From: Naegleria gruberi | Taxonomy: Eukaryota | Strand: one strand, 5' to 3' | DNA length: 64,000 bases | Assembly (NCBI GenBank): GCA_000004985.1 | Contig: GG738914.1 | Shown here: positions 1 through 62,579 of the stretch, piece after piece | Layout of the letters: the number at the start of each line of letters is the position of its first letter | Position numbering within the stretch: position 1 is the first letter of the stretch | Notes under the pieces: generated by a model | Seen by the model: only the letters and a program-made list of their open reading frames with translations | Told to the model about the DNA's origin: nothing | Database searches by the model: none | Position numbers and translations under genes: made by a program

Positions 1-4
1 CGGA

Positions 5-751
5 GTGTCAAGTCCTATGTACATGTTGTCTACTGTTGGGTTCAGATCTGATTTTTCAACTCTAGACTTTGGAAATTGTCAAGAATATTCCAAGTGTGGT
101 TTCGAATACAAATTTTTGATGGCCAACGTAGAGAATGTTGAAAGATATTTCATTGATTTTGTTACCAATATTATCAACAAGTCAGATCTTGGCAATAAGA
201 AGATTAGATTGTTGATTGTTGGACCAGAATTAGATTATGATAACGAAATTAGAAAGAAAATGACTCAATTACTATTCGAATGTTCGAATGTTACTCATCT
301 CTGTATCACTAAACCTTCCGAAATGGCAGCTTTCGCGTTAGAGAAGAAAAATGCAATTATCATTCACTCTGATGGCATCTCAACTAATATTGTTCCTGTT
401 ATTGAAGGCGAATCTTCTGATTACTTATTGAGATTTGAAAATTCATTGGTTGACTATAAGAATTTAACAAAATTCTACATGAAGAATCAAACAAAACTTG
501 GAGAAACAGTGAATGCTTCCTCTACTGGAATTTCAAAGCTTGTAATTGAACTCCTTTCTGATCTTGGAGATGATTACAATTTCACAGATACAATAGTTTC
601 AGGTCGCTCACTTTCGTTTAAAAGAATGAAAGAATGGAAATCAATTCCAAACATATCTAAGAGTGAATACAAACCAGAAGAATTAGTTTGGATGGGTGCA
701 TGTAAATTCGCAACTTATAGCTCAAACCAAAGATGGGTTTCACTTCAATAA
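5..751 (+). CDS. actin-related protein (Arp family), 3' fragment; the gene starts upstream of the window
   Basis: The translation carries actin-fold C-terminal motifs (IIIHSDGISTNIVPVIEGES resembles actin [20 protein letters not shown]; the C-terminal WMGACKFA resembles [10 protein letters not shown]). The ORF runs to the window edge. Confidence 0.5.
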   Translation: MSSPMYMLSTVGFRSDFSTLDFGNCQEYSKCGFEYKFLMANVENVERYFIDFVTNIINKSDLGNKKIRLLIVGPELDYDNEIRKKMTQLLFECSNVTHLCITKPSEMAAFALEKKNAIIIHSDGISTNIVPVIEGESSDYLLRFENSLVDYKNLTKFYMKNQTKLGETVNASSTGISKLVIELLSDLGDDYNFTDTIVSGRSLSFKRMKEWKSIPNISKSEYKPEELVWMGACKFATYSSNQRWVSLQ

Positions 752-1576
752 ATTGATTATTTTTTCCTTAATTCCAAAACATGCAGCAATTTCAGAGCTT
801 ACAATGCTATATTAGTTATGGTATTGAATCTTGGGCGGCATGAGAAAGCATTCAACGTTTGGTTTGATAACTAACCTTAATCCAAAAGAAACAATTTCCA
901 CAGACAATTGAAAATGATTCGCCCTTACTCAAATAATCTCTGATGGCACCACAACAGCAGCGATCAATCATCTACTGATCCAAATTATGGGAATGAGAAG
1001 CAGCAGCAATTGAGGAGATGCAAAATGTCCCCTCGTGTTAAATTCATTATTTTTTACACATTTTGAATCTTTGTTATTTGCGCGGGAGGAAAGGATGCGA
1101 ATGTTTTTGGTCTTAATGTCCAAAAAGGAAACACGCTTGCTGAATATAAAGAGGCAGAAAAGTTCTGAAAAAGATAAGGCTGTCTTGTGGCCTGCTTCGT
1201 TATAGTTGAAACCATACCAAGTGTTCCCCTTTTTTTGTGTGAAGTTCAGAACTGAAGGAGGATGATGTTGTTGATTAAGGTAAACATGACTTTTAATGGA
1301 CCCTCCTCACCTATCAATTCGCCTTAAAGAATCCCTTCTATTTTGTAACTTGCATTTGATTCCATGTGTATGCATATGGATACATTGAAACGACCAAAAA
1401 AAACCCCTCAACTTGGCTGTGCACACAAACAGAGTTGCACCACACGCTTAACCTTAAAGAATTCATCGAAAAACAGTTCATTGTATAGGGTACGAAATGA
1501 ATAACTATCACTCTCTTGTTAAATTAGCTGATAGCCGTCATTTACTTGATGGTTGGAAGGTCTTTTATTGTTAAAG

Positions 1577-55793: not shown

Positions 55794-56564
55794 ATGGCGG
55801 GAAGCAAATATTTCATCACCTTCACACTATTGATCGCCTTCCTTTCCATTTGGTTCTTCTACTTGATCCACTATCGTTTGGAGAATTTTTCTCCCCAACC
55901 AAGAAGAGTCATCTACAATGAAGAAGGCTTTTGTGGTTTCGATGGCAAGAATTACAAATCATCCAATCATGATGATCGGAATGATACTACTGATGATCAA
56001 TCTACCACCCACAATAATAGCAATCCTAATAATTTATCATCATCATCAATTTTAAATATTAATATTAATAATAATAATAATACAAAATTAATGATGAAGA
56101 TGATGCACAAGGGACCTTGTGGGATTTGTTCCAATTTACACGACTATGAAGTGTACAATAGAACACGACTCACACTCACAAGAACGGCAACATTATGTGC
56201 TGTTGGATACTTGCTGTTGGGTGAGAGAGTTTCGAGGTATTGTCTTTCGAGTCAGACTGGAATGAGTGAGCTGTGTGTGGAGTGTTGGTTGCAGAATATT
56301 CAGTGCACCACTGCCATGTGTATGCCAGTGTGTGTGAAACATTTTGTGAGGACGTATTGGGAGAGGTTGGCGATGGCTCTTGGATTGGATTCGATTGGAG
56401 AGTATTCAGCACAATTTGGAAAGGATAATTTATCACCTTGTTTCAAGTGTGATGAGATGGAGTGTGGAAATGGATTTAAGAAATGTTCTGGATTGAATAG
56501 AAGAAATGCTGGATTTGAAACTGATATTCCAAGACCAGATGAGCAAATGTGGAAGGGCAATTAA
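55794..56564 (+). CDS. hypothetical membrane-anchored Cys-rich protein
   Basis: The start is an ATG. There is an N-terminal hydrophobic anchor (ITFTLLIAFLSIWFFYLI), a poly-Asn linker and a C-terminal Cys-rich domain (CVECWLQNIQCTTAMCMPVCVKHF...CFKCDEMECGNGFKKC). Confidence 0.45.
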   Translation: MAGSKYFITFTLLIAFLSIWFFYLIHYRLENFSPQPRRVIYNEEGFCGFDGKNYKSSNHDDRNDTTDDQSTTHNNSNPNNLSSSSILNININNNNNTKLMMKMMHKGPCGICSNLHDYEVYNRTRLTLTRTATLCAVGYLLLGERVSRYCLSSQTGMSELCVECWLQNIQCTTAMCMPVCVKHFVRTYWERLAMALGLDSIGEYSAQFGKDNLSPCFKCDEMECGNGFKKCSGLNRRNAGFETDIPRPDEQMWKGN

Positions 56565-56568
56565 ATCT

Positions 56569-57744
56569 CTAATTATTGATTGCATTCGAAAGTTGATTTT
56601 CAGATGTACTTGTTGACAGAGTGATTTCTACTTGATTGGCTACTGTTCTATCTATTGTAGTATTTTTCTGACTGTTCAATAATAGTTGCTTTTCCTTTTG
56701 TTCAACTGAATCCACAATCTTATACGATTCTGAAAAGAGAGGATTGTATAAGAATAGAACCACAACACTAAAAAACAAAATTCCAAAAGAATTCAAGCAA
56801 TAATCAATAGCTTTCAAATCATTTGATACTAGTGAGGTGATAATTCCAACAATTGCAGAAATAATCTGAACAAAAGCACTCAGAATAAGTGATACCAATA
56901 GGACAAGTGTTTTGATGAGTGGTTTTTGAACCATTCTTACAATAAGACTTCTATTCGATTCCTGTTGCAGATTTAGAGATCTAGACCGAATTGTTTTAAT
57001 CACTCTCAATCCATAATATAAGAATAATCCAAGAGAAATTAACACCAATGAAGTGAATATTACAAAAACAGCTACTGAGAGACCTGTTTGCCAATTGCCA
57101 TCCAAGACACCAATAGTATTCAATACTTTGATTGTGGTGAGTCCAACAACTAGAATACTCATAATGACCGAAGTTGCTCCAGATAGTGTAAATGTCACAA
57201 TTCGCGACACTTTGAATAATTGTTTGCTCATAGCTCCAGACAAGTGTACAGTAGTCAAACTTCTTTTTAAATATATTATTAATAATATTTAAACTTACAA
57301 CACTGTTTGGATGAATCCAATAATTATCACCATTGTAATTGCCTGAAATAGGATTAATGAAAATTCTAAAGCACCGAGCACCAACAGTGGAATAATATTT
57401 GGAGGATTTTCTGTCGTATTCCTCAACTCCTTCCTCAATTTTAGGGATTCTCCAAAATATGCAATTCTAAAAATCAATGCCAATAATTGAATAAAGACAA
57501 GAACTCCAGCAAGGGCTAACAACTTTTTCTGATTACTTTTGATATTCTGCTTTCTTCCGAAATAGCAGACGAAAACAATAAGAGCCAATAAGAAGATAAC
57601 GAATAATACAGCAAATATGGATGAAACAGCGATTGAAGCAATACAATTAGTCTGAGTTGGAAGAATGTAGGTTATATTCTTTCCATTAACCAGTGTTCCA
57701 TTGGCTATCACACCTGTTGGCATGTTGACTGAATGAATGGACAT
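56569..57744 (-). CDS. seven-transmembrane receptor-like protein, paralog A (2 exons; intron about 57260..57298)
   Basis: The two track ORFs (57295-57744 and 56569-57258) join across a GTAAGT...AAG intron of 36-39 nt. The second ORF starts at a TTG. The spliced product has about 7 hydrophobic helices. Confidence 0.6.
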
Positions 57745-57884
57745 GTGGATATTTGTTTTTATTGAATGTCTGAAAGTGGATTCTCTTGCAATCTCATTGG
57801 GCTTTTAACTTGATGGTATTAAAGACTCAGGCAAGCAATCACTTGTCAATTAATAAGCTACCTTCAAAAGATGTGTCTAAGCAA

Positions 57885-59082
57885 TTAAATATCTACAGTA
57901 CGAGGTGAGTCTGCTGCAGAACTCAAACTGGAGGCTGATTGCACTCTCTCAGCCATTTCATCTCCTAATAAAGATTGCTTCTCCTTCTCCTCTACAGAAT
58001 CGACTACTTTGTACGATTCACTAAATAAAGGATTGTACAAGAACAGAATCACTACACTAAAAAATAGAATTCCAAAAGAGTTTAAGCTGTAATCTATTGC
58101 TTTAAAATCATTAGAGACACTTGATGTGATTATTCCAATAATTGCTGAAAGAATTAATATAAACGTGCTCAATACTAGAGAAATCAACAATGAGACAGTC
58201 TTGATGAGAGGTTTTTGTACTGTTCTAATAATTAAATTTCTATTAGTTTCTTGTCTTAGATTGAGAGATCTTGATTTGATGGTTGTCACTACTTTAAATC
58301 CAAAGAATGACAGCATGCCAAGAGATGTAAAGATGATAATGATGAAAAGAATAAATACTACCACAGTAATGGCAGTTTGATTCACATCTCCATAAATTCC
58401 AAGTGTTGTCAAAACTTTCGAAATGGTCAAAACAATAATGAAAATACCCATTGCAACAGCCGTGAGAATTCCCATGACAATGGTCATCACTCTCACCACC
58501 TTATAAACCTTCTTTGTCATGGCCCCAGATAAATGTACAGTTGTTAAACTATTGTTTTTAAATTAGTGTAATTGTGTGAAATAAAACCTACAAGACATAT
58601 TGGATAAATGAAATGATAACAACCATGGTGACTGCTTGGAAGAGTGAAAAAGCAAATTCCAAAGCTCCGAACACTACTAGTGATGTTGTCATTGAATCAA
58701 TGACAAATTTCACACCAATAAGAGATGTATATTTTGCTCTGATTGAAAAGGCAATTGCAAAGTAAATAATTCTCAAAATTAAAGCCATTAATTGAACACC
58801 AACTAGAATAGACGAAAGAATGAGTAAAACTTTTTGATTCCTCTTCATAACCTTCTTGGTTTCTGTTCTAACAAAAAAGCCCAGCTGCACAAGTAGAAAG
58901 ATAGCAAAGCAAACAACAAAGAATCCAGAAACTGTCGTTGATGCAATACAGTTTGGGTGAGTTGGCAAGACAGATGTCAGATTCTTATTGAAACCAGAGT
59001 CCGATTCGTTCAGAACAGCAGACTGCAAAGGACTCCACAATGTTGGTAAGCTAGCAAAGTTCAAGTGAATGGTTGTGGGCAT
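57885..59082 (-). CDS. seven-transmembrane receptor-like protein, paralog B (2 exons; intron 58549..58591)
   Basis: It has the same architecture as paralog A. A 43-nt GTAGGT...AATAG intron joins ...ISFIQYV to FLTTVHLSGAMTKK, which is the same junction position as in A (FLTTVHLSGAMSKQ). The likely ATG is at 59082. Confidence 0.6.
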
Positions 59083-59669
59083 AATGTTTTGTTTTTTTGA
59101 ATTGTTCAAAAGTTAAGTAGCATGCTTCGGGATTTTGGGATTTTTGCAACATGACAAGACACATCTTCACTTTTGGAAGAGTAATGTGATTTTATGATGA
59201 AAGGTTCCAAATGAAGAACATTGAATAAAAGAATCTAACAAGTAAGATTTTGCTAAAACAAAGAAAATGAGCCTTTCTTCATCATCATTCCATAATAACC
59301 AAACATTCCTTTCCTCAATTACCTCTTCAAAGCATCATCAGAGATAACCAACCACTCACAATTTATATCAAAAGTTAACCTTATTCAGAGACTTCTCTCG
59401 TTCCCTCAAAAAACCTTTTAAAAAATTAAAAGCAATCCTTCACCATTTTGTGCCTTAATTTTTTTTAAGAAATTGTTGGCGGGTAAAATCATCATCTTTT
59501 CCTTCGGAATTAAGAAAATGCTCGATTAAAAAAAAATCCTTATCATATTCCTTCACCTTTATCGAATTTCCAATGAGATTTGATGCTGGCACTACATGAG
59601 TAATATTTGAAGAAGAATTCTTGTAATGTTGGTGGTGCTTCATCTAGATTTAAATAATATTTAAAAAAA

Positions 59670-62579
59670 ATGTATGGAAATAACAAGAGGAAAAGAAAGT
59701 CATCATCCAAAACGGAGTGGTATGAAGGAGTATCATCATCCGATAGAATTGCATTGGTCAATTTTATTGTAGAATTGATTCCTGGAAGTTTGGAAGTAGT
59801 GAGAAAAAAGCTTGGTGATTTGATGGTGCAATCAAAAACACTAGATGATTTTGCTCAATCAGTTGCTGAATTTGTTCGACAACGAGCAAGAACCTATTCA
59901 GTTGACTATATAAAGGGGATGGTATTGGATAAGTTGGGTTTTAATTCACTATTTCTCACAGAGGAAATTCCTCTCCTTCCTTCACTTCCTTTAACAACAA
60001 TTCAACATAATTTGCTTCAACAACTGCCATCTCTACCTCCTCCTCTCTCTATACCAAATTCACTTTTTGATTTGAGTTCGGATCCATTGGATCTTTTACC
60101 AGGTACAATTACAACACCTTCTCCAAACAGTAATACTGTTAGACAAATGCCAAATAGAAGAATACCTTCACGTGGTATTGGCACTTCAGCACTTTCTATG
60201 TCTTCCTATACATCTTTCCCTGATCTCCCTCCTTCCAATCAAAACAGTGGATTGGTTGTTCGAGGTAATGAATTTAATTCACTGTTATTTGAAAATTTTG
60301 TGGAGAGAAACAAAAGAGTATCACAAGCTGTTAATGTACCTGGAATGAATATTGAAGAGCTAATGGAACAATATAGACATTGTACCAAGCTAGCCAAATT
60401 GTGGATAGTGCAAGATTTGATAACAAGAAATGAACTATCTCTAGTTTGTGGAGATGAATGGAAAGATTCTATTCTACTTTCCAATCTTCCATTTGATTTA
60501 AAGTGTGAGATTATCACATTTATTCCGACTGAAAGTTTTACTAACTGTTGGTGGATTCAATATTTGAGATTAAGAATTATTTCAAAATCAATGAAATCTA
60601 GGCTTGAAGAGACTCTCTTTTCAAGAATGACAAATGAAGGAATTGATCTCAGTGTTGTTATGAGTTCCCAACTCTCTAATTTTACTATCAAAGGAATACT
60701 TTCTCTATTATCCACACATGCAGAGTACGTAAGACAGGGTAATCAGTTTAGTGGTGATTTTTTAATTCCTAAAGGAGTCCCTGAAGAAGCAGATACCGAT
60801 ACATTCCAACTATTATCAAAAAAGGGTCTACTAAGCATGCCCAAATTTAATGGGAATACTTTTCGTTCAAAATTAGAGGAAAATCAATCGATTGATTATT
60901 CAAAATCATTCGATCACGATTATATGGAAACTTTGGTAACTATGGCTGCTAAAGAAGATAATACATCCTATAATCCATTTCAACAACATGTTGCTGCAAT
61001 CAATGATATTACAACAAAACAAAATGGTTTAGTGATGCAGTTGCAAACAGCTTTTCGTCAACCCGAACAAGAATTTACGAGTTTGGAAATTAATAATCCC
61101 TTTATCAAATCTCTTACTATTTCCTTAAATAGAACAAGAAACAATTTTATTACTGACATTTTGACTAATCTTGAGGAGTTGACTATAATAGTTGCACTTA
61201 CCGATTTTACTTATCCATTTTCACAACTCTTGAATAATATCAATCATCTCAAGCTAAAGAAATTGAATATTGTTTGCTACGATCATCTTCCAACAACATT
61301 GTTTCACAGCATTGAAGGTAGATTAGATTTATTAGATTTTGGAGGAACAATTTCTCTTTACGCTGATATTGACGAAGGTTTAATACACACAGCATCTTTG
61401 AGCAACCTACCAATTACTATTTTATTGGGAGATAAGATAATCAAATCAACACTCGATTTCAAAAATTTGACATTTAGTTTTCATCCAATTCGAGACTTTA
61501 ATGTTACAAAATATATTTTTGAAAAGGGATGGTATAGGAAAATAGATCACTCCATAACACGTATAGCACCCTTGTTTACGTCTATTGAAAATAATAAGAA
61601 AAGCACTTTTCCTTTTAGTTGGTTTAACGCTGACCAGATTAAGGAATTATTGAAATACTTTGTTTATGGTAACCAATTTCCTTGGTATGAAACTCCCTCA
61701 AACCAATTAGATGAATCTATTATACAATATTATTTACACATGTTGAATGTTAACCAAAAGCGATTAAGATACTCGGAACCTAAAGACTGCAGCGCAAAGA
61801 TCTTGAATATGATAGTTTGGGGTTATGATATTAGCCTATGTCCTGAACTAATTCTCACCAATTGTACTAATTTTGGAAATATTGGACGGAGACTTGTAAT
61901 TGAAAAATTGAAACTAAATCCAAATTATATTAATGTAGACAAAATCAGGGCTTTAATGCAATCCACGAAATCAAATACTAATGCCTTGTATTGTATTGTA
62001 CAACTTATTCCTTATATTCAAAACAATAATCAAATATTTGAAAGTTATTTACTGAATGGTAAGAAGACAAATGCTCTACTTTCTATTATTTTCCAACCAA
62101 CCATGCTTGCAGAATATGTGTTTGATAATTTTGTTAGTATCTCCAATATTGAGAGTGATGTGGAAGTATCTGGACTAAATATTTCCATGTTTAGTGTTAT
62201 ATTATCTTCACCACTCCCTAATAGACTAGTTTTAAAATTAGCAACAAGTAATCCAAAACTACTCGTTCGAAGAAATAGTGATGGTAATATTCCACTCCAC
62301 TATTGTTTCGGCTCACCTAAACGATATGTACTAATCAAGCCTTTCCTTGAATTAGCTCCAGACACCCTTGATTATGAAGATAAAAATGGCTACAAACCTT
62401 ATCATCTCATTCCAGAATGTTTGGAGGTTCAAGGTCCAAGACATCAAACTGGGATTGATTTGGGAATGGATTTTTTCCAAACTTTCATTCTTCCTGATGT
62501 TGTTAAAGATAGATTAAAGGAAGAATATGAAGCTCAACATGGTTTCCGACTGACCAACCACAAATTTGTGAATAACTGA
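59670..62579 (+). CDS. hypothetical 969-aa protein with a basic N-terminus and C-terminal ankyrin-like repeats
   Basis: This is a long open frame beginning at an ATG. An N-terminal KRKRK stretch is present. The C-terminal segment NSDGNIPLHYCFGS...DKNGYKPYHLI resembles ankyrin repeats. Confidence 0.45.
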   Translation: MYGNNKRKRKSSSKTEWYEGVSSSDRIALVNFIVELIPGSLEVVRKKLGDLMVQSKTLDDFAQSVAEFVRQRARTYSVDYIKGMVLDKLGFNSLFLTEEIPLLPSLPLTTIQHNLLQQLPSLPPPLSIPNSLFDLSSDPLDLLPGTITTPSPNSNTVRQMPNRRIPSRGIGTSALSMSSYTSFPDLPPSNQNSGLVVRGNEFNSLLFENFVERNKRVSQAVNVPGMNIEELMEQYRHCTKLAKLWIVQDLITRNELSLVCGDEWKDSILLSNLPFDLKCEIITFIPTESFTNCWWIQYLRLRIISKSMKSRLEETLFSRMTNEGIDLSVVMSSQLSNFTIKGILSLLSTHAEYVRQGNQFSGDFLIPKGVPEEADTDTFQLLSKKGLLSMPKFNGNTFRSKLEENQSIDYSKSFDHDYMETLVTMAAKEDNTSYNPFQQHVAAINDITTKQNGLVMQLQTAFRQPEQEFTSLEINNPFIKSLTISLNRTRNNFITDILTNLEELTIIVALTDFTYPFSQLLNNINHLKLKKLNIVCYDHLPTTLFHSIEGRLDLLDFGGTISLYADIDEGLIHTASLSNLPITILLGDKIIKSTLDFKNLTFSFHPIRDFNVTKYIFEKGWYRKIDHSITRIAPLFTSIENNKKSTFPFSWFNADQIKELLKYFVYGNQFPWYETPSNQLDESIIQYYLHMLNVNQKRLRYSEPKDCSAKILNMIVWGYDISLCPELILTNCTNFGNIGRRLVIEKLKLNPNYINVDKIRALMQSTKSNTNALYCIVQLIPYIQNNNQIFESYLLNGKKTNALLSIIFQPTMLAEYVFDNFVSISNIESDVEVSGLNISMFSVILSSPLPNRLVLKLATSNPKLLVRRNSDGNIPLHYCFGSPKRYVLIKPFLELAPDTLDYEDKNGYKPYHLIPECLEVQGPRHQTGIDLGMDFFQTFILPDVVKDRLKEEYEAQHGFRLTNHKFVNN

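Follow-up and report, generated by a model that had tools for sequence, protein, structure and literature searches.

Two tandem genes of Naegleria gruberi are intact, ancient paralogues from a vahlkampfiid family of seven-transmembrane proteins with a predicted GPCR-like fold

A Tandem Pair of Seven-Transmembrane Genes

A 64,000-nt stretch of Naegleria gruberi DNA (referred to as the window; contig GG738914.1 of assembly GCA_000004985.1) carries two genes, here named A and B, which lie head-to-tail on the minus strand within positions 56569..59109. Our analysis indicates that they are intact, ancient tandem paralogues from a family of seven-transmembrane (TM) proteins of vahlkampfiid amoebae. 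They share an inherited intron, their products have a predicted fold like the one that G-protein-coupled receptors (GPCRs) share, and the proteins may act as surface receptors. We give this account as a whole a probability of about 0.55. The results show how the genes are built, that they are paralogues under purifying selection, that the family is taxonomically restricted, and which fold class and predicted topology it has; we hold the structural and evolutionary account of A and B with high confidence.

The spliced products consist of 384 aa (gene B) and 378 aa (gene A) and are 56% identical over 329 residues (BLASTP, E = 6e-115). The genes are separated by a 140-bp spacer. A first-pass annotation of this DNA had described them as head-to-tail tandem paralogues, and the comparison bears this out. 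The common helix layout that it proposed was recovered as seven hydropathy peaks in gene B and as seven TM helices in a structure model. Both the shared splice junction and the C-terminal motif FGILFFSVV(V/I)LFLYNPLFSESYK(I/V)VDSVE are present in A and B alike. In each gene, exon 1 codes for an N-terminal tail with two N-glycosylation sequons, followed by TM1-TM3, and exon 2 codes for TM4-TM7, the YNPLF motif and the C-terminal tail. The two genes are each other's closest relatives, their 56% identity standing against 24-40% to the other loci tested. A tblastn search of the window revealed no third copy.

The spliced product of gene B (NAEGRDRAFT_74466) is residue-for-residue the same as the protein deposited as EFC37833.1, XP_002670577.1 and D2VZE9 (P0001 in our collection) under the name "predicted protein [Naegleria gruberi]". 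This identity assigns the window to N. gruberi. An exact look-up of this protein in the contig index gave no match. The public model has the same exon join as ours, with the same donor, and begins at ATG 59082; this is likely the start of the gene, and 59109 is then a mere TTG that opens the open reading frame (ORF). Judging from the sequences returned, gene A probably has no correct model among public proteins. An ORF fragment called on a metagenome contig (P0002) matches exon 1 of gene A with 100% identity. A word-indexed protein search was unreliable for such hydrophobic queries: with gene A and a 20-sequence profile as queries it returned 1-2 matches and missed the 100%-identical P0002. 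An exhaustive profile search was used instead. The literature yielded nothing usable on the gene identifiers or on a Naegleria donor consensus.

Selection on Both Copies

In both genes the start, the GT-AG intron, the frame and the stop are intact. A disrupted reading frame, which according to the first-pass annotation would mark one copy as a pseudogene, was found in neither. The comparison of synonymous and non-synonymous divergence that it proposed was also carried out. It gave dN = 0.40 and dS ~3.6, the latter being saturated, and hence a ratio of ~0.1 or lower. The saturation of the synonymous sites means that the duplication is old. At the 193 residues identical between A and B, the same codon is used in 95 cases. 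Recent gene conversion was ruled out, since synonymous sites are saturated even inside the identical C-terminal motif. Going by these codons, the identical peptide stretches are maintained by selection.

A second strain provided an independent comparison. A 1156-nt contig from metagenome run ERR1078381 (PRJEB11402; L001) shows the same B-then-A arrangement over positions 1..1156 and is 98.8% identical to window positions 58432..57279. A N. gruberi-like strain is, by this contig, present in the environmental sample. The coding sequences differ at nine sites, seven in exon 2 of gene B and two in exon 1 of gene A; all nine are third-position synonymous changes and 0 are non-synonymous. The non-coding differences (indels and one substitution) all fall within the 140-bp spacer. 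The protein encoded by exon 1 of gene A is 100% identical in this strain despite the two synonymous changes, and gene A retains all the residues that are conserved in the family. At the level of sequence, both copies look functional.

An Inherited Intron in an Invariant Phenylalanine Codon

Both introns split the same Phe codon after its second base (phase 2), which gives the joined peptide ...V/FLTTVHLSGAM (a slash marks a splice junction). The join reads ...CAA TAT GTC TT/GTAGGT...AATAG/T TTA ACA ACT in gene B and ...CAA ACA GTG TT/GTAAGT...AAGAAG/T TTG ACT ACT in gene A. Each frame closes at a consensus donor and reopens 39-43 nt further on, in the frame that continues the conserved peptide. 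For gene B, removal of 58591..58549 is the only join that restores both the family-invariant Phe and the conserved FLTTVHLSGAM. This residue, Phe164, is invariant among 20 full-length family members.

The first-pass annotation had emphasised divergent splice donors. Both hexamers are indeed there, GTAAGT in gene A and GTAGGT in gene B, but the divergence was overstated: they differ by a single base at intron position +4, and both introns are canonical GT-AG. A scan of ORF flanks in the window, which is a crude heuristic, gave likely introns with the donors GTATGT (four), GTAAGT (two), GTAGGT (one) and GTGTGT (one), so position +4 is variable in this genome. Raw counts of the GTAAGT and GTAGGT hexamers in the window did not differ from those in shuffled sequences and were uninformative.

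The acceptor of gene A (57260..57265, minus strand) is a tandem NAGNAG site, AAAAAG/AAG. Its sequence makes possible a minor in-frame splice form of gene A via the upstream AG, which would remove a 36-nt intron and carry ...TV-LS-LTTV... in place of the invariant Phe. It is the 39-nt intron choice that supplies this Phe.

An intron at the same site and in the same phase was found in six other members from different subfamilies, for which the DNA was fetched (loci L003/L004, L005, L006, L007, L008 and L009). These introns are ~37-46 nt long, and all have the donor TT/GTAAGT. The junction is also visible in protein collections. Among the family matches are many prokaryote-style ORF calls whose end falls at profile position 147 or whose beginning falls at ~149-158, which corresponds to the junction, and ~20 further ORF fragments break at the junction column. 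The N-terminal fragments that reach it end in "...x-L-stop", because the unspliced TT/GTAAGT or TT/GTAGGT reads TTG TAA or TTG TAG. One member of 389 aa (P0004; ENA ERZ27315067, locus L002, 3001..4170) is intronless, and its frame reads through the junction. Since it is uninterrupted there, the spliced form is the functional form, and the Phe-codon intron is typical of the family, not obligatory. This member is, from its sequence, evidence that the intron was lost, or a retrocopy formed, within the family. The metagenome contig that carries it is 7.8 kb long, and the gene next to it there encodes a cytochrome b561.

Judged by its distribution, the Phe-codon intron is older than the A/B duplication and than most of the family radiation. 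It was already in the family ancestor, in the invariant Phe codon at the predicted cytoplasmic end of TM3, and was copied along with the gene. With the intron in the ancestor, its conserved position in A and B is simple inheritance. The suggestion that the pair is useful for studying intron evolution therefore loses most of its force, as the position is inherited family-wide. As a separate observation, the intron of L008 (38 nt, ~990..1025) contains a yeast-like TACTAAC branch-site sequence, of which the introns of genes A and B hold no exact copy.

Extent and Signature of the Family

The exhaustive profile search (HMMER) returned 93 representatives at E<=1e-3 and 42 at E<=1e-10, and the longest family match does not exceed 523 aa. 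The named relatives that were checked all come from N. gruberi, N. fowleri, N. lovaniensis or Willaertia magna, and the remainder are metagenomic. On these sequences, the family is so far restricted to vahlkampfiid amoebae (Naegleria, Willaertia and environmental relatives), in line with the lineage-specific family that the first-pass annotation had envisaged. N. gruberi has at least six members: NAEGRDRAFT_74466, 61834, 61815, 63963 and 68785, together with gene A. Two of them, NAEGRDRAFT_61815 (P0015) and NAEGRDRAFT_61834 (P0070), share a 1.0-Mb N. gruberi scaffold outside the window, with locus tags 19 apart. This hints that clustering of family members extends past the A/B pair.

The family has a recognisable signature. 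It consists of K-R-N-Q-K after TM1, an Arg in TM2 (R104, conserved at ~90%), F..T at the end of TM3, Q-x-P-F-x-K before TM6 and L-L-Y-N-P-L (L-L-Y-x-P-L) in TM7. Residues F164, L284, F327, L334 and P337 do not vary among 20 members, and both A and B have them. One label apart, which is carried by a N. fowleri protein and is considered below, the members have no informative public name. The Pfam check recommended for the spliced products was performed and gave no match for A or B at E<=1.

The A/B pair itself is routine, being an old tandem duplicate whose intron was inherited and whose donors differ by one base. The modest interest lies in the family: it is sizeable, taxon-restricted and uncharacterised, and it has a known fold without a Pfam model. 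If its members are receptors, they become candidates for sensors and, in N. fowleri, for drug targets.

Predicted Fold and Topology

The structure was predicted with AlphaFold2 (AF2). A 3-row alignment gave an unusable model with a predicted local distance difference test score (pLDDT) of 53. With 20 diverse members, the model reached a pLDDT of 78.3 and a predicted template modelling score (pTM) of 0.74, and it showed seven long TM helices with a further helix after TM7. The N-terminal tail of ~40 residues is disordered in this model. In a Foldseek search, 49 of the top 50 matches were GPCRs, the exception being the sodium-pumping rhodopsin KR2. The matches are weak (best E 4e-3, TM-score 0.45-0.55), and the best of them are mixed: fungal class D Ste2, class C GPR156/GABA-B, class A V2R and opsins. 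The modelled fold is a generic seven-helix bundle of the GPCR/rhodopsin type and favours no one class.

The positive-inside distribution was determined for gene B, where predicted inside loops contain 18 Lys and Arg residues vs 7 in the outside ones. All three N-x-S/T sequons of this protein lie on the predicted outside. The topology predicted from these data has a short glycosylatable N-terminus outside and basic loops and the C-terminal tail inside. Together with this outside N-terminus, the predicted bundle, which can be superposed on solved GPCRs, places the proteins structurally among those with the GPCR fold. Conservation across the family is 0.45-0.55 in the intracellular loops and 0.36-0.38 in the extracellular loops; TM7 is the best-conserved segment, at 0.65.

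Putative Function and Alternative Explanations

A role as cell-surface receptors is the most likely function of the A and B proteins, at somewhat less than even odds. In such a role, the variable extracellular loops would sense ligand, and the outer face would diversify through duplication. The better-conserved intracellular loops and the TM7 motif would contact a common cytoplasmic partner, possibly one of the many G-alpha subunits of Naegleria. That A and B are GPCRs in the functional sense, with a putative coupling of this kind, is doubtful.

Several results weigh against the account proposed here. The 20 relatives searched against Pfam gave no match at thresholds from E<=1 to E<=10, and so no link to a known receptor family. 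When 80 members were scanned together, only scattered sub-threshold noise was seen, including 7tm_1 in 3 of 80 members at E>=0.22. The family profile found nothing at E<=0.1 among the sequences of all PDB chains. The DRY, CWxP and NPxxY motifs are absent from A and B. The cytoplasmic halves of the TM helices are no better conserved than the extracellular ones (0.515 vs 0.513, p = 0.61). Finally, the spliced product of gene A, its alternative-start version and the exon ORFs had no exact match in a collection of 15 billion proteins, except for the exon 1 ORF (P0002).

The family might instead consist of non-signalling seven-helix proteins of internal membranes, either of the THH1/TOM1/TOM3 tonoplast type or of the GOST/TMEM87 Golgi type. 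We consider this unlikely, yet it is the strongest of the alternatives. The N. fowleri member A0A6A5BLT3 (P0094) bears the UniRef name "THH1/TOM1/TOM3 domain-containing protein", and the family shows no recognisable G-protein-coupling motif. However, hmmscan found no PF06454 match at E<=10 in this protein or in the other members scanned (~100), and the label is probably a stale or borderline automatic one. Membership of THH1/TOM1/TOM3 was rejected on this failed match to the Pfam domain model. The GOST family (TMEM87, GPR107/108) was rejected because its proteins have a large luminal N-terminal domain of the GOLD type, whereas A and B have the ~40-residue tail with no GOLD or luminal domain. 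The sequons in this tail and the variable outer loops also fit an exposed receptor face.

That the family is a seven-helix transporter or channel is improbable; the first-pass annotation had already raised a transporter as a possibility. In its favour, the conserved Arg of TM2 and Gln residues in TM2/TM3 place polar residues within the membrane. On the other side, TM7 has no Lys for retinal, and no Pfam transporter family recurs among the members, ABC2_membrane appearing in 3 of 80 and below the cutoff. The top fold-search matches contained no transporter fold, only GPCR, rhodopsin and GOST-type seven-helix bundles. The structural comparison favours a receptor-like protein, with signalling as a putative role.

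More improbable still is that one of the two is a pseudogene or a duplicate in decay, for which gene A would be the likelier candidate: the missing exact match for its product and the return of gene B alone as a named N. gruberi protein would fit this, but the sequence speaks against it through the intact frames and GT-AG sites, the A/B dN/dS of ~0.1, the nine synonymous against no non-synonymous strain differences, and the family-conserved residues and unchanged exon 1 protein of gene A.

Gene Coordinates and Neighbourhood

The coordinates of both genes are collected in Table 1. Given this layout, the 140-bp spacer must contain both the 3' end of gene B and the promoter of gene A.

Table 1. 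Features of the A/B locus, in window coordinates and in the order of transcription.
Feature	Position	Strand	Details
Gene B (NAEGRDRAFT_74466) exon 1	58592..59082	-	ATG 59082 to TT of the split Phe codon
Gene B intron	58549..58591	-	43 nt, phase 2, GTAGGT...AATAG
Gene B exon 2	57885..58548	-	stop codon 57885..57887 included
B/A spacer	57745..57884	-	140 bp, stop of B to ATG of A
Gene A exon 1	57299..57744	-	ATG 57744 to TT of the split Phe codon
Gene A intron	57260..57298	-	39 nt, phase 2, GTAAGT...AAAAAGAAG
Gene A exon 2	56569..57259	-	stop codon 56569..56571 included

Two ORFs on the plus strand flank the pair. The first (55794..56564, 256 aa) has an Asn-rich middle and a Cys-rich C-terminal half, and gave no Pfam match. 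Only 4 nt lie between its end and gene A's stop codon. If both are genes, their 3' untranslated regions overlap on opposite strands because of this short gap. The second (59670..62579, 969 aa) is located immediately upstream of gene B in divergent orientation and has no Pfam match at E<=0.01.

Comparison with Known Systems

The A/B proteins resemble GPCR-fold receptors in the N-out/C-in orientation indicated by the positive-inside count and in the short glycosylatable N-terminal tail. They also share a conserved Pro-containing motif where TM7 ends on the inner side, with another helix after it. The difference is that the A/B family has no detectable sequence homology to Pfam or PDB sequences and has signature residues of its own. 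Assignment to the class A rhodopsin-like GPCRs (PF00001) was rejected, as TM3 of A and B ends with IQ(Y/T)VF, their TM6 is without Pro, and they carry YNPLF, not NPxxY. Microbial (type I) rhodopsins were rejected as well. The TM7 of A and B (LNSFGILFFSVV[VI]LFLYNPLF) lacks the retinal-binding Lys, and for this reason the family members are not retinal proteins.

The THH1/TOM1/TOM3 proteins are tonoplast proteins of plants that take part in tobamovirus multiplication. Like A and B, they are seven-TM proteins of similar size. Tandem, lineage-specific expansions of chemoreceptors are exemplified by the nematode serpentine receptors and the vertebrate olfactory receptors. The A/B family resembles these in being a large, fast-diverging, taxon-restricted seven-TM family, here with one tandem pair. 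A second likeness, at the level of sequence, is that its outer loops are variable and its inner loops better conserved.

The closest biological setting is the G-protein system of Naegleria itself. The G-alpha subunits of N. fowleri are numerous, and some of them depend on an exchange factor; the species also has arrestin-like genes and 28 7TM-RGS proteins, and one weak cAR-like GPCR candidate only (Bosch et al. 2022, PMC9283941). The authors also mention, as data not shown, further seven-TM proteins unlike known receptors (PMC9283941). Naegleria is rich in G-alpha subunits, RGS proteins and arrestin-like genes, and has almost no recognised receptors (PMC9283941). The 7TM-RGS proteins and the cAR-like candidate resemble A and B in coming from the same group of organisms, in having seven TM helices and in being candidate inputs to the expanded G-protein system. 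In contrast to the 7TM-RGS proteins, the A/B family lacks both an RGS domain and a long extracellular domain with EGF, lectin or GPS modules. All its matches are 523 aa or shorter, so no relationship to the 7TM-RGS proteins can be detected.

The A/B family fits the receptor gap in this system, its coupling being putative. It is conceivable, though unlikely, that the Naegleria/Willaertia family forms an unrecognised GPCR repertoire, whose members would be exchange factors for the conventional, slow-exchanging G-alpha subunits. If this is true, tandem pairs such as A and B would reflect ongoing diversification of ligand specificity.
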